In this document: positions 3,290 through 50,638 of the stretch, in pieces | Layout: each line of letters begins with the position of its first letter | How positions within the stretch are numbered: position 1 is the stretch's first letter | Origin: Curvularia clavata | Lineage: Eukaryota | NCBI GenBank assembly: GCA_023920165.1 | Contig: CP089275.1 | Location: 5,022,001 to 5,086,000 of the forward strand | Direction: 5' to 3' | Length of the DNA: 64,000 nt | Notes under the pieces: model-generated | The model's database searches: none | Told to the model about the DNA's origin: nothing | Seen by the model: only the letters and a program-made list of their open reading frames with translations | Position numbers and translations under genes: made by a program

Positions 3290-4450
3290 ATGGCGTCGGT
3301 GCGCACCTTCGAGCTACCGCACTACTACGTTTACCCCGTCCACGTGGCCCTCTTCAGGGATGTCGCCAACGCCTCACATCTCAGGCGCCAGCTGCTAGAT
3401 GCAAATCCGAATTTCGACTATGCCTTTTTGGACGCCTCCATGGTACGAGCCCTGTCTCCTTATCCCCGATTTGCTTTTTCCCGCCCGAAACATGGTCCCC
3501 TCCCGCACGCCCGCTACAGTCAGCTACCTCGATTGAGACCAAATCTCTCTCGAGAACGCTAATCCAGCCCAATGGATATCTGGCCTTTCGTCGCCCTCAT
3601 CTTATCCCCCCCGCCTGTCCCCCTTCTCGCCTCATGTGGCTGAGTGACATGCCCGACGCGCTAGCCTGACCCGCAATGAATGGTTCAAGCTCCGACTCCC
3701 CTGCGGCGCAACCACAGGCGCCGGGATCACAGAACGGTGTCGTCTGCCAGCATCTACCCAGATATGCTTCAACGTCACTCCGCCTAGTGGCTACGAAACG
3801 GGCCACAGCAGTCCGCACCAACCGCCGCTGCCACTTTGTTCTAGTGTCAAGACACAAGCAACGCCTCTGCCTGCCTCGTCGACTCAAGCTGCCTGTTCTA
3901 GCCCCCTCAAAACATAGCCACACGACCTACTGACTTGTCGCTAAAATAGATCATTTCACCCCAGCATCTCCTCTCCGCCGCCTTTATGGCTATACACAAC
4001 TTTGTGACGTCGCGTGCAAAGACGCGAACTCCCCACTCGGAGCTCGTCTTTCGCCTCTCCCCTAACAATAACATTGGTGAATCCTACAAAAGGTTTGGCA
4101 TTTCAGACGACTCCACGTCCATCATTGCCGTTAAGCTCCCGCTCTCTGCATCCGGCCCCGACGGCACCTACGCCCGGGATGAGTCAATCACCAATCACAC
4201 TGTGAGTGCTCATCTGGGCACGGTTGTCCAAGGGACCAGTGTCGAGATTGGCGATGATGGTCAAGAGCTCGGCATAGCATGCCAACTCGACAAGGTCCGC
4301 AAGGTCTATAAGCTCAGTAGTGCTGATGGTGGCGCAAAACCCACCAACGGTCTCAACGGTCATGAGGGTAATCACGGAAATGACATCCAAGCCCAAAAGA
4401 AGCACGTCGAGAGCCTGGTCCTAGGAATCATGGCCCTAAAGGGATCGTGA
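3290..4450 (+). CDS. CGI121: KEOPS/EKC complex subunit Cgi121 (TPRKB family); exons 3290-3442 and 3950-4450
   Basis: Exon 1 reads MASVRTFELPHY...LFRDVANASHLRRQLL...FDYAFLDASM, then GTACGA. The intron ends TACTGAC...TAG at 3949. Exon 2 reads IISPQHLLSAAF...KTRTPHSELVFRLSPNNNIGESYKRFGISD, a Cgi121 signature. Confidence 0.9.
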
Positions 4451-31802: not shown

Positions 31803-34032
31803 TCAAGGGCCGGACTCCGCTGCTGCTTCCGACTCGAGATGAGTCTCGTTGTCGGGTTGCGACCGTCTCCTGTCCTCAGGGTCTTGTTCCCCCTTTCCGT
31901 TACTCATCGACTTCACGCCGCTCCTTTCGATATCTCTCCTCAGTTCAGCTTCCTCTTTCGGATCCTCGGTACCTTTTGCGCTGTACTCTTGGTCCATGCG
32001 GTGCATGAGCTCTTCGCCCGGTAGTAATATGCTTCGGTCAATTGCAAAAGGAAGCCCTCGGTGCCTTCCCCGGAGCATGGCGAAAAGTAATACCACTTTG
32101 CTCAGGCTGGCAAAGTCGCCGCAAAGGCTATAGTTTTTGCCTGGAACACCGAGACTGAGACCGACGGTGCCATAGGCGGATGTAACTTCAAATAGTATGG
32201 AAAAGACACTGAATCCGGGATCCGCGTTCAGAATATGGCGCCTTTCGATGCAACATATTAGGAAGAAGACTAGAAACTGGAACCAGATGTCGTAAGCCAG
32301 TTGCTTCTGCAGGTGGGAGGCTATGCCGCCAGCGTTGTTGTTGTTCTCTTCTAGCCCGATCGACTTCTCTTCATAGGTGTTCGTCTTTCGTAGCGTAAGT
32401 GTCATAGGGTAGATAGAAATATACCTAAATATCGAGGAATAAAGTCAGCATGATCCAGGATTATCTTAACAGTGTGTGACTCTTACATTATAACAAGGTA
32501 TGCAACCAAACATGCTGGAGCTAGGGAACTGAAAGATATAATATAAGCACCGCTGGTTCTTAGTCCACTTGCTTGAAACAGACCATCGAGGATACGTGTG
32601 CCAGTGGAGAGAGCCTCAACGTCTGGCATGCCGATATTCAAGATCTCGAAGCAAAGCCAGGCCGTCACGTCAATGGCAAACTGAGTGAAGAACAGATACA
32701 GTGTTTCGCGAGCAGGAAAAAGGTAGATGAAGCATCGCCGTGGATGCTGCAGCAAAAATCCCATCGTGTTGTTGACCCGTGATTGTTTGGGTGCCATCTT
32801 CTTCAAGCCCCAAATAGTGATGCGGAGGAAGATGGGAAACTGTGTTTGGCCGGCAAATGCAATGGTTGCAGCTACCAGTAGAACATACGGGTAGCCACTG
32901 AAGGGAACAAAGTTGGCGTTCAATATGTTCAGACCGCCGTTTGCAAATTCGGTGACAACTTGAAAGAACCCCCACCATCCAGGATTGATAGTCCCAGGCT
33001 GTGAGCTGTATAGTACGCTCTGGATATTCCCGCGGTAGGCATATGGTAGGAGGAGAGTGGTCCCAAGTAGATACCAGAATATTTGGTACCCGATCAGAAT
33101 CAGTAACAAAGCCTGCAACGCACGATACTCGACACCTCCCAGCTCCATGCGATCTGCCTCGCTCAGATCCCGAAAACGGCCTCTAGAGTCGAGATGCGGT
33201 TTGAAAGAGATATAGTCATGCTGTTCAGGCTTCAACTCAGTAGCGAAGAAGTTGATAAAGCGATGGAACAGGTTCTGTGCGAACTGCGTCTCCCATGGCG
33301 TTGGTATGAAGCCAAAGCCTGTTTCGTAGTAGTACGTCCTTTTTCGTGATACTGGTTGGATTTTGATATTCGAGGGGCCGCCACTTTGAATCTGTTTGCC
33401 TTTTCCAATATGATTTTGAATTTTTCTCGGCCGGTGACGCAAGCTCTCGCTACTGCTGCTGTCCTCAATCGCATTTGGTCGACGATTTTCCTCAATATCG
33501 TGAACTAACCGCTGCATCGTATGCGATTGTTTTATGACATCTGCTAGCTTCTTGCGGAACAAGGCTCTCCTGATCAACACCACAGCTGTTGAAACAAAAG
33601 GTATGTTGCCAACCATCATGAGGATGGCAAAGGTAGCTTGTTGGTAGCCAGACAAGGGGCCGAGATCGACTGGATTGAGACCTGGATTGAAGTCAGTTGA
33701 TAGGTCGTATCAATTGCAACAAGTAACTTGCCTGTAGTCGTCATAGCACTACAGCATAGGAATAGCGCGTCTATGTAACTTAAATGCGCATCGCAGAGCT
33801 CTCTCGGTCCATCAGCAAGACCTTGCCCATACACAACAACGGATGAAAGCGCAATAACAACAATGAAATACAGCATATGCGCGCGGTAGAAATTCAGCCT
33901 GAACACCTCCTCTTTCATATACTTGATGAAATCATCTTTCGCCTTGCGCGGGTTCTGCAGCTCATCCAACGGATCCGTCATTACTGATTCGTCATCTACG
34001 TTGTCGTCAAGTCGCTGCCAGAACGAGCTCAT
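31803..34032 (-). CDS. Trk/Ktr/HKT-family (TrkH) cation/potassium transporter; introns 33731-33682 (GC-AG) and ~32485-32425
   Basis: Four pore-loop motifs: SAMTTTG|LNPVDL, EFANGGL, GLRTSG, FEVTSAYGTVGLSLG. Also LGGVEYRAL, FLLQHPRRCF and RGRHRGLP..IDRS. Confidence 0.92.
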
Positions 34033-39856: not shown

Positions 39857-42763
39857 ATGGTGGGGACGGCCAAGCATCACCACCACCACCCGGCGCCGAC
39901 GACGACGACGACAAGACAGAGTCCCCAGGGTAGAGCAAAAGGCGTTGCCTTTGCGAGCGATGACGCCACGCCTCAACCCAGCCGAGCCGTCTACCAGGAG
40001 CGCGCCCACTCTGCCTCGCTCAGCTCCCAGGATTCGTGCGATGACGACCTCATGGACACGCTGCTCTCGGCCTCGTCCATAGCCCACGCTGACACCCTCT
40101 CGTCCTCGGGCCACTCGACGGCCATGACCTCGGCCACCACCTACGATGACCGACCCAGCCCCGATGTGCCGCCATCAGCAAGCCCCGCGCCATATGCACA
40201 CCCCACCATCTCCCTCCTCGAGCTCGTCTCCAACACGGCCTCGTCGTCTGCCCTGCCCGACAGCTTCGATGTCAATGTCTCGCGCAAGGGCGGCTTTGTT
40301 GCCGTCTACTCGGCCTCCAACCTGTTTTTGATCAAGACGCTCGAGCTGCCTCGCCTGTGGGCCCGAACGCTGCAGGTCAAGCGCAAGCCTGTTGCAATTG
40401 ATATCACCGAAGATGGCTTTCTCCTTGCAGTGCTGTCACGGCCTTCCCAGGTTGATCTGTACGAGATCCACGGCGAGGGAAACGACCAGATCAAGAAGAG
40501 GAGGACCATTATGCTGGTACATGAAGCTGGCTCTGTTGTTGTGTCACCCGATGCACGTATACTCATCACAGGAAACAAGTTCGGTATCGAGGTCATAGCC
40601 ATCGGGCCCGAAGTACCAGAAACCCTGCGGCGAACGCTTTCGGGGCCTGCGGGGGATGCACTCGAATTTTCAGATGACGGGAGGACGCTGCTCATTACGG
40701 GATACGCACGAAAGTCGGATGGTTCTGCCTTGTTTGTTCTGCCGGGTCTGTATGATGGCCCTCTTACCGAAGAGGGAGAGCCAATACCGCAACCACCAGA
40801 AGCAGCGTGGACGGGCTCGGTTTTGTTCCCAGAAACGGCCAGGATAGCGCGCCAGGCTACACTTCTCCCAGATGCAGACACTGGGACGTTCAACGAACTG
40901 TTTGCCTTCAACTCCGAGGAGGATTCGTGGGGTATCTACGACATTGCCTGCCAGCGCTTTACCCAACGGAAAATGTTTCTCCCTGACCACCAACGTTGGA
41001 CGCGTTCGGAATTCGTCGACGACGCCATGCCTGCTGTATCTCCCAATGCCGATTTGGCAGCCGTTGCTCTGCGGATACAGGGCACGACCAACATCTGGAT
41101 CTATAAAGTCCCAGGGTGGGATTATAACCCAGCTGAGAAGGAAAAACTGGATACCCCGATTCAGCCTTGCTATTGTATACCAATACCAAGCGACCACGCG
41201 GCAATGATGCAAGAGATTTGTGTGCTGAGATGGGTCCGGCTAAACGCCAACGTTCAACGGCTCGTGGCTGTCGGCAATTCGAGCATAGTTCCTAATGAGA
41301 ACGAGGTCCCTGGGGCGCCGCTGGGATCAAAAGGGGTTCTCGTTGTCCTTGATTTCGACAAAACGAAGCCTCTTGGATATACCCCGCCAACCCCCTTGAA
41401 GACAGAGTACGACCTCGATCCGCTGTGTCCTGGGGAGATGTTGCCAGAAGGTCTGATTGACTTTGATCGTGAAGTTGAATTGGTGCGGACCAGAACCATT
41501 GCTCAGCGCAGAGCCCAAGACCGTAGTGGTTCAACATCACGGAGAAACTCGAGAATCGGATCTCGGCCTGTTCATCGCTCCCAGACGAATAGGAACGCAC
41601 CGCGGCCAGCAATGGCATCTGACGACGCTGAAGAACTGACACCAGAGGAGGCCCAGGCCATGTTTGAAGTGCCATACGACAATCAACAGCCAAGGTCGCA
41701 GACGTCACTGGCGAGAGCGGCTACTGTGGCAGCTGTGTCGCCTGCAAACCGTCGACATCTGAGGGCTTTGCCGTTTAGGCCACTGGAGTATCGTCGTGCT
41801 GATGGGCATCGAGAGCTTCCCCATGAGAGTGACGCGGATAACTGGGTGCCACCTCCACCCGCATACACGGCTACAGCGGCGGCGGCAGAGAGCGTTAGCT
41901 TGAGTCATCCTGACGCACCGCCGGTACCTGCAGTACCGAGTATGAACCCAGCTACGGTACCGTCTGTCCCTGCACTGCCCACCATGCCTGCAGTCGGGAG
42001 CCCTTCGCCGATGCCATCACGCCCCTATCAACATCGCCAACAATCCATTTCCTCGAGCATTTCCTCCTCTCATACAGCTCAAGACAGTCGCAGGCCATCT
42101 CTCATTCACCCATCGACCTACCCTGCTCCACAAGCTTCAGACCCGGTACATAGAAGACGAAGCTCAGCGAACCGCCCAGCGGGAAATCAGGCGCCGTACA
42201 GTGCTTTACCTTCAACACAAAATATATACCCGGCGCCTTCCACATCCGCACCGAGATCTCTCCCTCACCAACATCCTGTCAGAAGTCCGTTCACGGAACA
42301 CACGAATCTGGATCTGTACTCATCTCCAGCCGGACCAAGCCTGAATCCACCAGCTTCTTCTATCCGACACGTCTCCGCACCACAACCAGCGCCACAAGTA
42401 GCAACCCAAATCCAGCGCCGCCCTGTTCCACAACCCACCATAGCTCCTGTACCTCACACGACCACGAATATGCCCCCATTCGTCCCCCGCGCAACCGTCG
42501 ACCCTCGAAACGCCGCTCTACCATCACTAATCCCACCCCCTACCAATCTCTTCTCAGGACCTGGCCAACAACTTCCCAACAGCGCGCCTCCTTGTTCCAC
42601 CCATCCTGCGTCCTTTGCGCATAGAGCTGCCGCAACGCAGGGCAGAGGGAACTCGCTGAGTGCACGCAGTGGTGTTACGCGCATGGATCACGGACTTGTA
42701 TCCGATGGCAAGGATAAAGCCAAGAAGAAGGAGAAGAGGAAGACGGCGTGTGTAGTCATGTGA
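39857..42763 (+). CDS. 968 aa protein: WD40-like beta-propeller N-terminal half, Pro/Ser-rich tail, PPxY motif, polybasic CaaX end
   Basis: Intronless ORF with repeated beta-strand/turn motifs (AIDITEDGFLLAV, VVVSPDARIL, LEFSDDGRTLLI, AVSPNADLAAV). Contains WVPPPPAY and ends KAKKKEKRKTACVVM. Confidence 0.8.
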   Translation: MVGTAKHHHHHPAPTTTTTRQSPQGRAKGVAFASDDATPQPSRAVYQERAHSASLSSQDSCDDDLMDTLLSASSIAHADTLSSSGHSTAMTSATTYDDRPSPDVPPSASPAPYAHPTISLLELVSNTASSSALPDSFDVNVSRKGGFVAVYSASNLFLIKTLELPRLWARTLQVKRKPVAIDITEDGFLLAVLSRPSQVDLYEIHGEGNDQIKKRRTIMLVHEAGSVVVSPDARILITGNKFGIEVIAIGPEVPETLRRTLSGPAGDALEFSDDGRTLLITGYARKSDGSALFVLPGLYDGPLTEEGEPIPQPPEAAWTGSVLFPETARIARQATLLPDADTGTFNELFAFNSEEDSWGIYDIACQRFTQRKMFLPDHQRWTRSEFVDDAMPAVSPNADLAAVALRIQGTTNIWIYKVPGWDYNPAEKEKLDTPIQPCYCIPIPSDHAAMMQEICVLRWVRLNANVQRLVAVGNSSIVPNENEVPGAPLGSKGVLVVLDFDKTKPLGYTPPTPLKTEYDLDPLCPGEMLPEGLIDFDREVELVRTRTIAQRRAQDRSGSTSRRNSRIGSRPVHRSQTNRNAPRPAMASDDAEELTPEEAQAMFEVPYDNQQPRSQTSLARAATVAAVSPANRRHLRALPFRPLEYRRADGHRELPHESDADNWVPPPPAYTATAAAAESVSLSHPDAPPVPAVPSMNPATVPSVPALPTMPAVGSPSPMPSRPYQHRQQSISSSISSSHTAQDSRRPSLIHPSTYPAPQASDPVHRRRSSANRPAGNQAPYSALPSTQNIYPAPSTSAPRSLPHQHPVRSPFTEHTNLDLYSSPAGPSLNPPASSIRHVSAPQPAPQVATQIQRRPVPQPTIAPVPHTTTNMPPFVPRATVDPRNAALPSLIPPPTNLFSGPGQQLPNSAPPCSTHPASFAHRAAATQGRGNSLSARSGVTRMDHGLVSDGKDKAKKKEKRKTACVVM

Positions 42764-43472
42764 TTTGTGAGTCTGGGAACGGGAGGAACTTTTTTCCTGT
42801 ATATATGCGGGCAAAGGCGATGGGATGATGGCGAGTCACGATTTGCTCTTCATGATCACGTTTACGCTCCTGCGCCTTTTTTTCGTTTGGATTGATTGGA
42901 GTTACGTATATATACCCCCATATTGAGCCTTTTATTTTTGCTGCATTGTTGCTCATGATGAGTTTGACTGGGTTTTTGACTGTTCTATAGACTGTATCTT
43001 TTTCCCACTCCGTTTGGGTCTTTGGTGTTGGCTTGGCTGGGTTATTGGTGTTTGGTATAGGAAGAGAACGGAGGTTACGAGAAAATCAAGAAGAAAAGGA
43101 TCGAGACAGAGAAATGAAACAAAGAGCATGATTGATCGATGTACCTTGCTTTTCTCAGCGTCTTTAGTGTAGTGCGCTGAATTTCAAGGTATCCATGGAT
43201 CCATTCTTCTTGGCATATATTCACCCGTCTAGCCTATTCTTGGTGTTGGATATTGGCGAGGGGGATGATGTAAGACGGAGGAGGCCTGTGATTGACACAA
43301 TATGGGCCAGGGAGGGAGGGAGGGAGACGGCACGGCATTACACCGGGCTGAGTCAGACGGAGCCATGTATGTGATTGACATCCATGTTGCAAATTGAGTT
43401 TAAGCAACCAAAAGCACAGAGTAGGATCGGCAAAAACTAATATTTACTTTGTTGGATAATCCCTCACTAATA

Positions 43473-43983
43473 GCATCCGTCCCTACGTGCCGGGACGCAC
43501 GGTGTGACGGGACACCTTCTCGTCCGCAAGCTCGGATTGCTTTTCAGATTTTCAAATGTAGGCAAGCAAGATGGGCGTCCATTCTGCAGCTCTTATCTTC
43601 TAAGCATATTAGCCTCCGATGCCAAACATCGCGTTGTTGACTATGCTGTCGCTCGTTCTGTTTGTGCCGGCGACCAACTCTCCTTTATTAACCCCCTGTT
43701 CATTGGCGGTAATAGATTTTAGTAAGGAGCTTGGTGGGCTAAGGAAGGAACCGAGATGGCAGAGTCCAAGAATCCAGCCTAGAAAGGTCAACTTAAGGTG
43801 AGGTGTATGCATTCCGGCAGTTTCTCCGCGCTGGCGACAACAACGTCAAAACGCATCAAACTGGTTGTGCGACTTTAGTGACAATTGGTGGCGGTAGCGT
43901 GCTGAGATGTCTGGAAGCCGTATTGCGCGCTGTGGCTCAGGACCCTAGCTTAAAGATCTTTGCCTCAGGCAGCTCTTATTCCC
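43473..43983 (+). repeat. Left long inverted repeat arm (~510 bp)
   Basis: Collinear blocks shared with the reverse complement of 47486-48010, e.g. AAAGGT(C/T)AACTTAAGGT, CCGGCAGTTTCTCCG, GTAGCGTGCTGA, CGCTGTGGCT, CAGC(T/C)CTTATTCCC. Confidence 0.85.
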
Positions 43984-44224
43984 GATCTGTAGACAACTAT
44001 ACTTGAGACTCACTCCTAGCATAAGTAAGGTTTATCGTCACGCTGTGTAGATTTGTCGTGCAGAGTTCATTAAAACTCCTTACTACTTGGACAGTTATTT
44101 ATGTAGAGTTAGTGGGATATGTTGTTGCGTGTTAGCACATAATTACTTTTAAAAAGCATAACTACATAACTGAGCGAAGTCGCGACATCTGGCTTTGAGA
44201 CTTATATTGTATACGAAGATAAAG

Positions 44225-47200
44225 TTATAGGTCTTCCTTGTCATACTCCCTTCGCCAGCTATGTAGCGTATTAAGCGACGACTGCGTATCATAGTGTTGC
44301 TCGCCAAGGACCTGCTGGCGTAATTGAAAGCATGTTTCCATTAGTATACGAGCCTCCTCGCGGCGAGCTTGCGACTGTAGGGTGAAGGCAAGATTGCTCA
44401 TACTAGTCAGCGTGTCAGGATGCTCCTCGCCGAGCACTCTGTTCCTTATCTGCATTACTTGCAGAAACAGCTCTTCAGCCTCTTCCCATCGCCTTTGTTT
44501 CCTATACATTAACGCCAGATTGTCTATACTACTTAGCGTGTTAGAATGCTCACCGCCAAGCACTCTCTTTGTCGTTCGCATCGCCTGTATAAATAGCTCT
44601 TCAGCCTCTTTCCATCGCCCTTGCTTCCAGTACGTTAACGCTAGGTTGCCTATACTACTTAGCGTATCAGGATGCTCATCGCCGAGTACTCTCTTTTTCG
44701 TCCGTATCGCCTGTACGAATAGCTCTTCAGCCTCTTTCCATCGTCCTTGCTTCCTGTATATCGAAGCTAGATTGCCTATACTGCTCAGCATGTCAGGATG
44801 CTCCTCGCCAAGAACTCTCTTCCTTGTCTGCACCGCTTGCATAAATAGCTTTTCAGCCTCTTCCCATCGCTCTTGCTTCCTATACGTCGACGCTAGGTTG
44901 CTCATACTAGTCAGTGTATCAGGATGCTCCTCGCCAAGTACTCTCTTCCTTTTCTGCATCACCTGCATGAATAGCTCTTCAGCCTCTTTCCATCGCCCTT
45001 GCTTCCAGTACGTCGACGCTTGGCTACCCATGCTGCTTAGCGTATCAGGATGCTCATCGCCAAGCACTCTCTTCCTTGTTTGTATTACTTGCATTTCTAG
45101 TTCTTCAGCCTCTTCCCATCGCCCTTGCTTCCTATATATCGACGCAAAGTCGGATATACTAGTTAGTGTATCAGGATGCTCCTCGCCAAGAACTCTCTTC
45201 CTCATCTGCATTACTTGTACAAACAGTTCTCCAGCCTCTTTCCATCGCCCTTGCCTCCAGTACGTCGACGCTAGGTTGCCCATACTAGTCAGTGTATTAG
45301 GATGCTCCTCGCCAAGCACTCTCTTCCTTGTCTGCATTACTTGCACATTTAGCTCTTCGGCCTCTTTGTACCGTCCGTCACTAAAAAGTGTTCTAGCACA
45401 CTTCGATGCAAGATTCAATATCTTTTCATCGTTGCTATCCGCTAGACTATGCGACAGAGCATGCTGGGCATGCGGAAGCAGTCGTCTCCACTTGCTTCTA
45501 TTACTATGTTCATCGTTTGGAAATACTTGGAGTAACTGTGTGATAGTGCGTCGAGTCCACTGTACAAACTGACCCTGCGCTTGCAGCCGGTTGCGCAGAG
45601 TTTGATGGACTAGTCGATGAACATCAAGTGCACACTCAGCAGGTCGTCTAGTGACGAGCGCGTACTTGTCAAGTACTTTGACGGCATCTTCACGGGCCCG
45701 TGGCGAAGCTGCCTCTAGAAGATCGAGTGAGACGTCCTTTCGATCTACGCATGCAGTGATAAAGAGATAGTCTACAGCGACAGCATTAATATGGCGGACT
45801 TGGCTAATGGAAATAGATAGTGTAACAGCTATAGTCTTTCTTAGATTAGCTTCCTGTAGCTCGCTTTTCGACGAGCTATTACTGTATTCGAGAGCTGCTT
45901 CTTTGTGCTTATCTAACTGTACTTGGTACTGTTGCACTGTTATACTACTAGCGTTTATGCACGCTGCCGCTTGCACGACTGCTAAAGGCAGATAGGATAG
46001 CTCTCTTAGCAGATGCATAGCTTCCTGCTGCTCAGCGTTTGAAAGCGGCGTTGTTAAGCGGGTTTGCAGCATTCTAAGCGCCGTGTCTGGCGTTAGCTCG
46101 TGCAACGCTATGACGTTCTGTGGAGCGAGCGTCTTAGCTGTGTCCCTCTTTGTTGTTGTGAAGATAACAGAACACAGCTTAGAGTCCGGTAAAAAGTCGG
46201 TCAGGTCTGCAGCTCGTGTAGTGGACGAGCCGCTAGGCCGTAATGTGGTACCTTCTACGTTATCGTAGATTAGCAAACATTGTCGTGTGTTAATATCTGC
46301 TACACAGCGTTTTGCCACTTGCTTTGTGTCTGCCTGGTCGTCTTCGAAACCAGGGATACTAAGCTTTTGTGCAACGATGGCATAAGACCGGTAGAGACTG
46401 TCTATGTCGCTCGCGTCTATCCAGAAAACTGAGCAGCTTCTACGACTCTGCTTTGTCCTGTAGGCAGCCTCGAGCGCGAGCTGCGACTTGCCTACTCCGC
46501 CAGGGCCAACAATTGCTAGCGTGGTGGTGGTCTGCTCATCGTTGAAGAGCTTCGCTTCTAGCTTCGCCTCTAGCTCTGCGAGCTGTAGTTCGCGACCTAC
46601 AAAAGACTCATTTCGTGAGAATGGGATAATTGACGGCGCACTACTAGCTCCCTCAACTTCAGCCTGCAGTCTTCTTAATGCACTCTCCTTTCCTTCTCCA
46701 TACGTCGTAAGCATGGAGACGCCAAGAAGTCCAAGCAGGCAGTACACAATATCTTCGTCTTCAGTCGTTCTGCGATTTCCCACCCACCGCCTCCGCTCAG
46801 ATATGCTAAACTGCTCTAAAGGACAGTTGCGTAGCGCAGCAAGCGGAATATCAGTAATTTCGTGTATTAGCTGGTCGAGCGACGTTTTGTCACCTATGCG
46901 GCGTCCTTCACGCGAGAAAAACTCCACTGATACTGGCGCGATCAGCTCTTGAAGCGTCCAACCTCTCGTAAACCATTCGCTCTTTCGGAACGACGCTTCC
47001 CAGTCGCTGCATGCATCTATCTCCATCACGGCTGACAGCGGCACGTCTGACAAGAAGACGTAGCATCGGGCCGCGTCCCGGTACCACTGGAACATCGAGT
47101 TGATCGCCCTTGAGCGCTCGTTGTTGTTCCATCTGTCGATGCAGCATGTGTCGATCCAGAAATACTGTAACCCGTCCTGAGCCGCCTGTTCGGCACAGAA

Positions 47201-47374
47201 CTGCAACTTCCGATAGCCTTCTCCCGCTTTTATGTAATTGCCATTTGATACGTCTTCGATAAGGGTCTCAGAGTCGCTCCATCGGTGTGATAGAATGGCG
47301 TAGGGAGGGGTCGACTTGCCGCGAAAGTCTGTTAAGATGAGTCTGCCCAGCGCGTTAAAATGGAGAAGCCGCAT
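44225..47374 (-). CDS. Fungal NLR: HET effector domain + NB-ARC/P-loop NTPase + ~9 TPR repeats
   Basis: HET motifs PYAILSHRW, YFWIDTCCID, AINSMFQWY..A..CYVFLSDV and SEWFTRGWTLQELIAP. Walker A GPGGVGKS, Walker B LLIYDNVE, YLPLAVVQAA, then 42-aa repeats. Intronless, 1049 aa. Confidence 0.95.
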   Translation of the reverse strand: MRLLHFNALGRLILTDFRGKSTPPYAILSHRWSDSETLIEDVSNGNYIKAGEGYRKLQFCAEQAAQDGLQYFWIDTCCIDRWNNNERSRAINSMFQWYRDAARCYVFLSDVPLSAVMEIDACSDWEASFRKSEWFTRGWTLQELIAPVSVEFFSREGRRIGDKTSLDQLIHEITDIPLAALRNCPLEQFSISERRRWVGNRRTTEDEDIVYCLLGLLGVSMLTTYGEGKESALRRLQAEVEGASSAPSIIPFSRNESFVGRELQLAELEAKLEAKLFNDEQTTTTLAIVGPGGVGKSQLALEAAYRTKQSRRSCSVFWIDASDIDSLYRSYAIVAQKLSIPGFEDDQADTKQVAKRCVADINTRQCLLIYDNVEGTTLRPSGSSTTRAADLTDFLPDSKLCSVIFTTTKRDTAKTLAPQNVIALHELTPDTALRMLQTRLTTPLSNAEQQEAMHLLRELSYLPLAVVQAAACINASSITVQQYQVQLDKHKEAALEYSNSSSKSELQEANLRKTIAVTLSISISQVRHINAVAVDYLFITACVDRKDVSLDLLEAASPRAREDAVKVLDKYALVTRRPAECALDVHRLVHQTLRNRLQAQGQFVQWTRRTITQLLQVFPNDEHSNRSKWRRLLPHAQHALSHSLADSNDEKILNLASKCARTLFSDGRYKEAEELNVQVMQTRKRVLGEEHPNTLTSMGNLASTYWRQGRWKEAGELFVQVMQMRKRVLGEEHPDTLTSISDFASIYRKQGRWEEAEELEMQVIQTRKRVLGDEHPDTLSSMGSQASTYWKQGRWKEAEELFMQVMQKRKRVLGEEHPDTLTSMSNLASTYRKQERWEEAEKLFMQAVQTRKRVLGEEHPDMLSSIGNLASIYRKQGRWKEAEELFVQAIRTKKRVLGDEHPDTLSSIGNLALTYWKQGRWKEAEELFIQAMRTTKRVLGGEHSNTLSSIDNLALMYRKQRRWEEAEELFLQVMQIRNRVLGEEHPDTLTSMSNLAFTLQSQARREEARILMETCFQLRQQVLGEQHYDTQSSLNTLHSWRREYDKEDL
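44270..45400 (-). repeat. 126-bp tandem repeat array encoding TPR units (8 near-identical plus 1 degenerate)
   Basis: Consensus LASTYxKQGRWxEAEELFxQVMQTRKRVLGEEHPDTLxSMxN repeated, with high DNA-level similarity between units. Confidence 0.93.
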
Positions 47375-47485
47375 GGCGCTTGCAACCTGAGACTTGATTC
47401 TAGGTAGCCAGACTTGCGGGCATCTTTTGTGGTAGTGAGATTATGACGGGAGCGCAATTGGGGAAAACGACTGCCTGCGCAGCCT

Positions 47486-48010
47486 GGGAATAAGGGCTGT
47501 CAAAAGTTAGGCGAACGTGCGAGCTGTAATCCTCAGCCACAGCGAGCAATGCAGCCTCTGAATATTTCAGCACGCTACTGCAAGCCACTGCACACCAAGA
47601 GCAGCGCTAACTCTATGCCCGCGCAAACAGGTTCTGGCAATCTTACTGTTTGCACGGAGAAACTGCCGGGATGCGCACTCCGTACCTTAAGTTAACCTTT
47701 AGAGGCAGCAATCTCAAACTTTGCCATCTTAGCTTTCTTTCTGGGCCATTTAGCTCTCTACAAATAGTAGTTGTCACGAACAAACAAGGGTGTGTTAGAG
47801 GAGAATCGATCAACAGCACTAACAGAATGAGCGACATCGTAGTCACTAACACGCTTCTCAGCGTCGGATGGTGATGCACTAAAACAGTAAGAGCTATAGA
47901 ATAGATGCGCATGGCGACTGTCTTAATGTAAACGCGCTGGGAATATTCCGAGCTTACGGAAGAAAAAGTATCCCGTGACACCAAGCGTCCCGTCACGTAG
48001 GGACGGACGT
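47486..48010 (-). repeat. Right long inverted repeat arm (~525 bp)
   Basis: Reverse complement aligns collinearly with 43473-43983 and ends ...GGACGGACGT|TA. Confidence 0.85.
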
Positions 48011-48281
48011 TAGATACGACATCTAAGTTTTATGCATAAAACACAAGAATGACAAAAGATGGGAAGTTTGCACAGATAATGGGGGGATGACAAGACAGAT
48101 TGGTATATACTATCGAAGGCAATCATGACATTAACCAGAATTTCTTTCCGTTTGGTATCCTCCTCGAACAAAGGAGAAGACAAGAAGAAGAAGAAAGTGT
48201 GGTATCTATAAAATTTTCCTAGCAAAACTCAACCTCCCAGAGAAGAAAAGGCTCTAGAGAGAAGAAACGGAGGAGAGATGC

Positions 48282-49139
48282 TTAGAGCATGAAAGCAGCG
48301 ACAGCGGCGGCAGCACCGACGAGACCCATGCCGGCAGAGAGGCCAGAGGCGGCGTTGGTGGTCTGCTCGGGGAGAGAGGGGCTGGTGGTGTTGCTGACGG
48401 GGTAACCAGAGGGCTTGACAGTGGCGTTGTGGGAAGGAGTGCCAGCAGGAGCAGAGACCATGGTGGTGGGGTAAGGAGCCTGGGTGGGGTAGCCGCTGCT
48501 GGCAGGAGCAACGGGGGTGGCAGAGGCAGGGTAGCCAGCAGAGGTGGAGGCAACTGGGTAACCAGCGGCGGAGGAGGCAGCCGGGCTGGAGGAAGGAGCC
48601 GGGGCGCTGCTGGGAGCAGGAGCAGCGGAGGACGACTTGACGTCGCCGCACTTGCCGGCGGAGAGGCCGAACTGGGTGCTGTACTGGTACTGGCCGGTCA
48701 CGTCGTCGATGATCTGGAGACCGTAGCCGGTGTTGCCCTCGGTGACGGGCAGGTCGGAGGCGGGAGTCCAGGCGAGGCTACCGCCGTTGACGATGCCCTC
48801 GGCGAGAGCGGGACCGAACTTGACAACGTTGGTCGAAGGGCCCTTGAGGAGGAGGACGGAGACGGTGTTGGCGGTGGTGGGGGTCCAGGTGATGGTGAAG
48901 GGCTCACACTTGGGGACGACCTGGGAGAAAGGGTTAGCGCGTTGTTTTTGTTTGGTTTTGGGAAGGGGCCCAGTCGCACGCGTCGCACATCAGAAGGTGC
49001 GACGGTTGAGAGAGCATGTGCAAAGACGTACCTCGTTCAAAGGACGGGTGATGGGGTTGCCCTTTGGGTCGCCAACAGGGGCGTGGAGCTGGGCAGCGGC
49101 AATGCCGGCGAAGAGGACGATGGCAGCGTTGGAGAACAT
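48282..49139 (-). CDS. GPI-anchored Ser/Ala/Pro-rich cell wall protein (Kre9/Knh1-like N-terminal domain), one intron
   Basis: Signal peptide MFSNAAIVLFAGIAAA, then GNPITRP..|VVPKCEPFTITWTPTT...YGLQIIDDVTGQYQYSTQF. S/A/P-rich stalk and hydrophobic C-terminus after TNAA (GPI signal). Confidence 0.9.
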
Positions 49140-50638
49140 GGTTGCTTTGTTTGTTTGTTTTTTTGCGGGATTAGATTATCGCTGGGATATCAAGTATTAG
49201 AAGTAGCTTTGCAAAAGCGAGCTGGTAAAGAGTGACGGATGGTGAGAGGTTTCTGTAAAAGAAAGGCTGAAGAACCAAGAAGTCTTCGAAAGGCTTGCAG
49301 TAGTAGATATATTACTGAAGGATGGCGCGAGAGAGAGAAAGAAGGCAGCAGGCGGCGCAGCATAAGCTCTCTTATTGAAGGCCCCCAAACGGTCCTATGC
49401 AGGGATCCAGGGCCAGCCTAGCGCTGACTCGGCGCTGCCACTACCCACGTACCTGCATTCGCCCGCTAGGCCCGAATCCGCCTTCAGTCTGCCCGCTGGG
49501 CGAATCGCAGCATGGCTGGGAGATTGCATCCAGCTCGCGTCGTGTCGTCGACCTCCCGCCTGTCCTGGTGGCGCTACCGGTGAGCGCCTGGCACGGCCTA
49601 TTTCTGGAGATTAGCCCTGGAGTGGTGCCAAAGGGATGGACGCCTGAATCAATCGCAAAGGAGCTTCGCGCCGGCCAGTCTGCTGCTAAGCTGCTGCTAG
49701 CAACAACTTGGCTGGTTAGCTGGCACCCGCGGGAGATGAGCGCCCAAAGCATCGCCGCGTTGACGCCTACGGCTCACCCATCGCGTTCGCGTCCGGGATG
49801 GCATTGGCACCGAGCGCGCAGTTTGCCATTGCATCACCCGTCACAAAGCGCCATTGACGTTCATCGCAGTTGCTCCAGATGTGCGCGCGCACCCGAGCCC
49901 CTGTATGACACCGCCATGCAGCATTAGGCCCAAAAAACCGTCATGCGGGCTATCGAAAGCCTCGCCCCTGGCCTGAAGAGTCCTGGTGTCTAGGCCTCCA
50001 GCTGCACAAGAAGAAAAAAATAGGAGCAATGCGCTTGCCAGGCCGCCGTCGTCTTGCATGTCTCACTCACACATAGCCGAGCTGTTACTGTACCATAGAT
50101 GATGATGTTCTCCCCCCCAGCACCAATAAGCCCGCAAATTACCGCCGGTTGCCAAGAAGGAACCATTCTGCGACTCCACACGTGCGACACGGTCATTTGC
50201 GGTCGTTTCAGTATGCTTGTTGGGATTCTTCATCTCTTTTATTCGAGAAAATAAACTATAGTGGTTGTGTCATATGTACAAGCTGACATGTGTGTACCGA
50301 GTACTCCTCCTTGGCTACTCTCATGCCGTCGTCGCACCATGGGCATACAATTTGCCCAGACGTTCAGCTCGTAGAACTGTGGTATTGAGGCGTCTACTAT
50401 CCAGTTCAGCTGTCGAACCATGTGCATTGCGCCTCCCCAAGCGGGGCCCCGGGTAAGAACGAGGGAACGCTTCGGGGTATTTCGAGGCGCAATGGCATTC
50501 GTATCGTATCATCGTCAGTGCGTGGTATGCGCGCATCCTAGTGAAGCGAGCGAGCCTCATGCATGGGCTGGGATAAAGAAGAAGGAGAAGAGCAAAAAGA
50601 TACAAAAGCATCAAGCGCACGCTACAACATCAAACTGC

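Follow-up and report, generated by a model that had tools for sequence, protein, structure and literature searches.

A candidate non-autonomous pogo/Fot1-like element with an intact NLR gene in the fungus Curvularia clavata

By what vehicle could a single NLR immune-receptor gene reach a new place in a fungal genome? Fungal NLR repertoires turn over fast, and the only concrete vehicles named in the literature found are the giant Starships. The question is raised by a unit of 4538 bp (positions 43473-48010) in a stretch of 64,000 nucleotides of Curvularia clavata DNA (assembly GCA_023920165.1, contig CP089275.1, positions 5,022,001 to 5,086,000 of the forward strand; hereafter the window), with one NLR gene in its centre and an inverted arm on either side. 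The original prediction, made from the sequence alone, was that this is a non-autonomous "pack" element that moves NLR genes by means of a transposase supplied in trans. With modest confidence, we favor reading the unit as an old, fixed insertion of a non-autonomous element of the Tc1/mariner superfamily, with pogo/Fot1-like ends and an intact NLR as its sole gene. The prediction is partly supported: the arms are multicopy and travel with this NLR lineage at nonhomologous sites, and its further claims, that the two arms form the mobile unit and that a transposase acts in trans, did not gain the same support. The unit and its flanks comprise the following features.

43471-43472, no strand: TA at the left flank, candidate copy of a target-site duplication (read directly).
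43473-43536, plus strand: core of the left terminal inverted repeat (TIR), which starts GCAT (family consensus ACGT) and holds two CGGGAC motifs (repeat and motif evidence).
43473-43998, plus strand: left (gene-downstream) arm, non-coding (nhmmer profile positions 1-540, E 5e-159).
43999-44224, minus strand: AT-rich spacer, 37% GC, from the stop codon to the left arm (no relative found).
44225-47374, minus strand: intact, intronless NLR gene of 1049 aa (open reading frame and Pfam matches).
44262-45443, minus strand: tandem 126-nt (42-codon) TPR array with 8 copies in shifted register, which have 64-82% identity to the reference copy.
47375-47467, minus strand: leader linking the right arm to the ATG, alignable with locus L002 (below) and variable in other relatives.
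47468-48010, minus strand: right (gene-upstream) arm, ending in ACGT (nhmmer profile positions 1-541, E 3e-161).
48011-48012, no strand: TA at the right flank, candidate copy of a target-site duplication (read directly).

Direct reading bears out the predicted ends: TA followed by GCAT on the left, and ACGT followed by TA on the right. The predicted inverted repeats around the gene are also real, and longer than had been thought. A repeat search recovers their tips (43471-43536 and 47947-48012; 66 nt, 83% complementary), and the arms as a whole run to ~530 nt (43473-43998 and 47468-48010), with a profile made from all arms spanning 43471-43998 and 47468-48012. Aligned with each other by blastn, the two arms match over 358 nt at 69% (E 1e-32) and over another 52 nt at 79%, and the pair scores 132 bits, where 100 shuffled controls peaked at 23.8. 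Overall identity between them is ~63%. The outer 62 nt are better kept (51/62 identical, 82%) than the remainder (281/463, 61%; Fisher p = 7e-4), which suggests that the tips were once under constraint, and for some time. Each end carries the doubled motif of the prediction: on the left, CGGGAC occurs twice, 17 nt apart, at element positions 19 and 36 (43491-43496 and 43508-43513), and the right end mirrors this with CGGGAC at 47987-47992 and CGGGAT at 47970-47975. Fungal Fot1/pogo-type elements have paired 17-bp direct repeats inside the TIR, according to the available part of PMC2836289. The unit fits this layout, with TIRs of tens of nucleotides that contain paired direct repeats, the outer 62-66 nt being 82-83% identical. 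The putative pogo/Fot1 assignment is based on the TA flanks and on how the direct repeats are laid out in the TIR, and both agree with that part of the source; ACGT ends, which the prediction had treated as diagnostic of such elements, were not found there as a diagnostic feature.

Two other explanations of the arm sequence were rejected. Frames of ~94 codons are open in three arms, and a frame of 82 codons lies in the left arm, but the substitutions lack codon periodicity (2.95, 3.0, and 2.78 per site class), and the arms were not accepted as coding. Repeat-induced point mutation was dismissed as the source of arm divergence on the grounds of two-way transitions, unremarkable indices, and a GC content of ~50%. 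A search of Rfam with positions 43000-48500 (E up to 1) returned no match, no further copy of the arm was found within the 64-kb window, and the spacer (43990-44240) matched nothing in the metagenomic loci described below or elsewhere in the window.

The gene between the arms is the complete HET-NB-ARC-TPR gene of the prediction. Its intact 1049-aa open reading frame (ORF) matches the Pfam families HET (1e-12, residues 25-110), NB-ARC (6e-12, residues 271-505), and TPR_10 (2e-131, in 9 stretches), the last within a TPR_10/TPR_12 array, so that the N-terminal HET, central NB-ARC, and C-terminal TPR regions that define a fungal NLR stand in one ORF. Relatives number 7539 at E <= 0.001, and the best named ones are from Pleosporales. 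Compared with three of the relatives introduced below (L002, L003, and L005) over the first 660 codons, the ratio of nonsynonymous to synonymous substitution rates (dN/dS) is 0.17-0.28 at a dS of 0.67-0.89. Judged by this ratio, the gene is under purifying selection and has been kept functional. Other ORFs of at least 80 aa inside the unit are limited to one of 89 aa in the right arm and one antisense to the TPR array. The antisense frame, a 260-aa plus-strand ORF (44790-45572) with a 126-nt period, is most likely a by-product of the repeats and not a gene.

Whether the arms are genuine transposon ends can be asked of other genomes. The comparison set consisted of 80 metagenomic loci encoding relatives of the first 700 residues of the NLR. 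The arm is present in 4 of these 80 (L002 to L005), which are four of the six closest NLR relatives; the other two are uninformative, as L001 has 2 nt of upstream sequence and L006 has 312 nt, without a visible arm. In all four loci, the arm lies upstream of the NLR in identical orientation and begins at the identical base. TA stands outside five of the six family termini (both window ends and three relatives), with TG in L005; at the window TA frequency of 0.042, the probability of at least five in six is 7e-7. CGGGAC is found at positions 19 and 36 in five of the six termini, the second copy being missing in L004. The flanks of the four loci and of the window unit have no mutual similarity by blastn or tblastx, which places the arm-plus-NLR copies at different sites. 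A base-exact boundary at differing sites points to a transposase-type cut rather than to random segmental duplication. The arms are supported as real transposon-type ends by a terminus that is sharp and shared, by the TA outside, and by subterminal direct repeats in pairs.

Some of these observations could equally describe a conserved promoter and 5' untranslated region (UTR) module of the NLR lineage, with the left arm a local inverted duplication and no transposon involved. The arm is without exception upstream of the gene and in constant orientation, its internal conservation is patchy, and in L002 homology continues unbroken from the arm through the leader into the coding sequence (CDS). 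Such a module is, however, a very unlikely explanation, since it does not account for the base-exact outer boundary, TA at five of six ends, the unrelated flanks, or the direct repeats at the tip. Nor does it explain why 10 contigs that may come from the source genome start at that same tip, or why the left arm ends there beside TA.

Arm and gene were copied together. Identity between the window copy and the others is 0.66-0.71 in the arms and 0.76-0.79 in the CDS; between L002 and L003 or L004 it is 0.71 and 0.82-0.83, respectively; and between L003 and L004 it is 0.88 and 0.89. Arm and CDS thus rank the copies alike, which indicates that the two were duplicated as a single piece. Loci L003, L004, and L005 share one accession prefix and are 86-89% identical in the CDS, with unrelated flanks. 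Two of them are damaged (L004 is frameshifted, and the arm of L005 is short by ~350 nt), so that in that source the family went through two or more rounds of copying and is now in decay. Taken on these sequence comparisons, the NLR-carrying elements are a family rather than a one-off, and the NLR gene family was probably spread by transposition.

Public contigs compared with positions 42000-49500 at >=80% likeness extend this picture, and those of run X1 may come from the source genome. Ten X1 contigs match from 43476 inward, and their outward sequence is unrelated. Their consensus ends in GTAACG, so that other copies read TA followed by ACGT, as at the right end here. Together with the five NLR-linked copies, these 10 contigs starting at the terminus make the family multicopy, at different genomic sites. 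The prediction had called for a search for arm homologues and for whatever lies between paired arms: the arm was recovered with an NLR in 4 of the 80 loci, its terminus was recovered in 10 X1 contigs, and no second copy with paired arms came to light. A profile search found no further termini among the 80 loci, and the terminus pattern had 0 matches in viral contigs and 0 in prokaryote genome contigs. A profile of the pseudo-protein read from the arm frame matched 20 ORF clusters in the JGI, ENA, and Logan metagenomes; as a weak link, arm-ORF and NLR matches fall on contigs of equal size in two cases, 19859 (P0131, P0004) and 4946 (P0148, P0042). Metagenome gene sets list the arm-derived ORFs P0121-P0140 as "hypothetical protein", and one cluster member, P0143, is named a 16S rRNA methylase, which is likely a misannotation of a non-coding transposon arm.

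Whether the two arms of the window copy belong to one element is harder to settle, and a number of observations weigh against it. Two arms are seen only in the window copy. The contigs of L002 and L003 end inside the gene, so only L004 and L005 can be read past it, and in neither did a profile search with E up to 10 find a downstream arm or terminus over 3.6-5 kb beyond the gene; inverted ends around cargo are thus found in one copy and absent from these two. In L004, the NLR is broken and homology stops in the TPR array at ~3755-3771, and in L005, an intact gene of 893 aa stops at 3411, with homology running out ~20 nt before the window's stop. An X1 paralogue (record 2, 3094 nt) reaches ~900 nt past the stop with no left-arm piece of >=80% among the pieces listed. 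Sequences at other places in the genome (>=80%) are closer to the left arm than its own partner is (63%). In X1, summed contig depth is 307-427 over the left arm, 128-173 over the right arm, 125 over the spacer by the stop codon, and 89 in the flank. At >=80% likeness, this amounts to 3.4-4.8 times the flank for the left arm and 1.4-1.9 times for the right, where summed depth is not copy number and is taken only to mean several further contigs >=80% alike; the gene body also draws paralogous contigs. Strong extra depth on the left and weak extra depth on the right place the closest relatives of the left arm elsewhere and not in its partner. The arm tree is star-like, and the topology that makes the window arms sisters has a p-AU of 0.19 against 0.53 and 0.58 for the others, all three lying in the 95% set. 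No transposase with these termini was found in the 80 metagenomic loci. The usual Fot1/pogo TIRs are also much shorter than 530 nt. Finally, the empty site with a single TA that the prediction had hoped for did not appear. Contigs of all three DNA runs (X1, X3, and X11) bridge both junctions, and among 15 joints listed of 92, from near-identical genomes only, none skips the element, leaving no sign of presence/absence polymorphism in these runs.

These points can be drawn together as two separate events, the main rival history, which we regard as rather unlikely. The family unit would then be one transposon end plus an NLR, and its spread would be due to duplication (segmental or ectopic) or to transposition of a one-ended or aberrant kind. 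The left arm would be a solo fragment or an end that belonged to a second family member, landed or recombined tail to tail downstream of the gene, and no functional TIR pair would enclose the NLR. The downstream arm is missing in both readable relatives, the homology of L005 runs out just short of the window's stop, the left arm has several relatives of >=80% in the genome where its partner is at 63% and shows little extra depth, and the window arms are not united in the tree, all as this history would have it. Weakly in its favor, too, the 20 arm-ORF matches all lie on contigs of different sizes, none with two arm ORFs. It nevertheless calls for a second insertion no more than ~750 nt from the stop, inverted, losing all but its first 530 nt, and leaving the gene unharmed. 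Five copies that share, to the base, one 5' boundary at TA require a transposase-like cut, and a cut-and-paste enzyme requires a second end. The missing 3' arms are weak evidence, given that L004 (frameshifts) and L005 (an arm deletion of ~350 nt) have decayed. The left arm, moreover, stops at the exact family terminus beside TA, which suggests that it was also placed by a transposition-type event.

The age of the arms bears on the favored reading of a single, two-ended insertion. The maximum likelihood distance between the window arms is ~0.68 substitutions per site, close to the dS between the window NLR and its relatives, so that the arms and the window copy would be of about the same age, in keeping with arms that were alike at the time the copy arose. 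With an arm distance of this size, the element is, by the same molecular yardstick, old, a relic of past dispersal and not a currently active vehicle.

The search for an enzyme within reach gave a uniform answer. As had been predicted, there is no transposase inside the unit, and the 14 scanned window ORFs of >=200 aa gave 0 matches to transposase families. A DDE/D transposase with a CENP-B/Tc5-type domain, as pogo/Fot1 elements encode, was found neither in the unit nor among these 14 ORFs, and a DUF3435 captain or other recombinase was likewise missing from them within the 64 kb visible. The unit lies, again in line with the prediction, between the 3' ends of two convergent genes in a gene-dense region: on the left, a plus-strand gene for a 968-aa DUF7165 protein ends at 42763, and on the right, the frame of a minus-strand Ser/Pro-rich gene ends at 48282. 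Genes of the neighborhood are ordinary (transporters, TrkH, a Zn-cluster factor, GH5, DUF7165), and composition is even across the region. The available parts of PMC13449251 and PMC9156397 describe NLRs as frequent Starship cargo, and the NLR could in principle be the passenger of a larger mobile element of this kind, with the arms as incidental repeats. We consider this extremely improbable, given the ordinary neighbors and even composition, the want of any recombinase or transposase match among the 14 ORFs, and homology with relatives that stops at the arm tip.

Two neighboring loci deserve description in their own right. The right-hand gene (48282-49175, minus strand) encodes a Ser/Pro/Ala-rich, secreted-looking protein, the putative GPI protein of the original prediction, with a hydrophobic N-terminal start and C-terminal tail; it contains internal repeats of 57/114 nt at 48440-48631 and an intron at 48919-49029 that is spliced out in run X7. 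Farther away, two adjacent minus-strand ORFs (31803-33619) both match TrkH (profile positions 112-351 and 363-501) and are probably one intron-split cation-transporter gene.

Run X7 also offers a view of transcription. It is RNA-like, in that the intron of the right neighbor is removed and one bin has zero depth. Low-depth X7 contigs lie over the NLR, and one of them (43613-44621) joins the left arm to the 3' end of the gene, a hint that the NLR is expressed with its 3' UTR within the left arm. The left arm probably contains this 3' UTR, and the gene's promoter and 5' UTR presumably lie in the right arm. At position 43527, where the window has C, most other contigs across all four runs have G, including two X7 contigs (summed depth 137/152); with G in X7, there appears to be transcription from other arm copies. 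A further X7 contig (depth 273) covers ~47731-48257 by inferred coordinates, differs from the window at 47936, 48086, and 48193, and apparently spans the right junction. On the same inferred coordinates, either a transcript derived from the arm or the 3' UTR of the minus-strand Ser/Pro-rich gene may extend ~280 nt into the right arm.

How does such a unit compare with known systems? It resembles Fot1, Pot2, Tan1, Aft1, and Trem (the pogo/Fot1 group of Tc1/mariner), so far as the excerpted sources describe them, in its TA flanks, its ~60-nt TIR with two direct repeats ~17 nt apart, and its multiple copies with unrelated flanks. It differs from them in having no transposase, an inverted homology of ~530 nt, and a complete host-type gene of 3.15 kb that is not a deletion remnant. 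Pack-MULEs and other Pack-type TIR elements of plants are non-autonomous, have a captured host interior, and are moved in trans; they mostly hold gene fragments, belong to the Mutator, CACTA, and hAT groups, and make longer target duplications. The unit is like them a non-autonomous TIR element with captured host sequence inside, but it has a whole gene under purifying selection (dN/dS as above) and TA-type ends. Mimp and other fungal MITEs (miniature inverted-repeat transposable elements) lie in promoters of accessory genes, and one MITE of a fungus is reportedly moved by a Tc1-like transposase. Here too, short TIR-bearing, non-autonomous DNA lies upstream of fast-evolving accessory genes and is possibly regulatory. 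A MITE, however, is a complete small element beside a gene, whereas in this case the ends enclose the gene and no inner TIR occurs in the upstream arm. ToxhAT (~14 kb) and the Starships share with the unit complete fungal genes as cargo, often including NLRs in the case of Starships, as described in the available portions of their sources; Starships are giant and use a tyrosine recombinase, while the unit measures 4.5 kb and has one gene, TA on either flank, and ends like those of pogo. Some NLRs show a stronger association with transposable elements (TEs) than others, and TEs have been suggested as possible movers, according to the accessible part of PMC13449251. In the full-text literature searched, no description was found of an NLR as the sole cargo of a small TIR element or a non-autonomous one, although TE libraries in supplements could hold the family. 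The literal terminus motifs returned only chance, primer-like matches in unrelated papers.

In the favored reading, a DDE transposase encoded elsewhere would have bound the two direct repeats, spaced 17 nt apart, in each ~60-nt terminal repeat and cut at the ACGT ends, and the 4.5-kb unit would then have integrated at a TA between the convergent genes. The upstream arm would travel with the gene, presumably supplying its promoter and 5' UTR, and the downstream arm would hold the 3' UTR. Terminus, upstream region, and NLR would have been copied to other sites in this fungus and in related Pleosporales-like fungi. After insertion, the arms would have drifted about neutrally while the gene stayed under purifying selection. 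A wider proposal, which we put forward tentatively and with slightly more doubt than belief, is that Pleosporales harbor a family of TA-inserting TIR transposons of ~4-5 kb whose sole passenger is an expressed NLR, driven by the arm and moved in trans by a pogo/Fot1-type transposase.

If true, NLR repertoires would expand by cut-and-paste of single receptor genes and not only through tandem duplication or Starships, and a small TIR element with a whole NLR would be a simple and testable mechanism for dispersing allorecognition and immune genes. The constant 5' region shared by a gene family would then be a transposon end. In addition, an intact host-type gene under selection would be carried by a classical DNA transposon, which is rare among eukaryotes.

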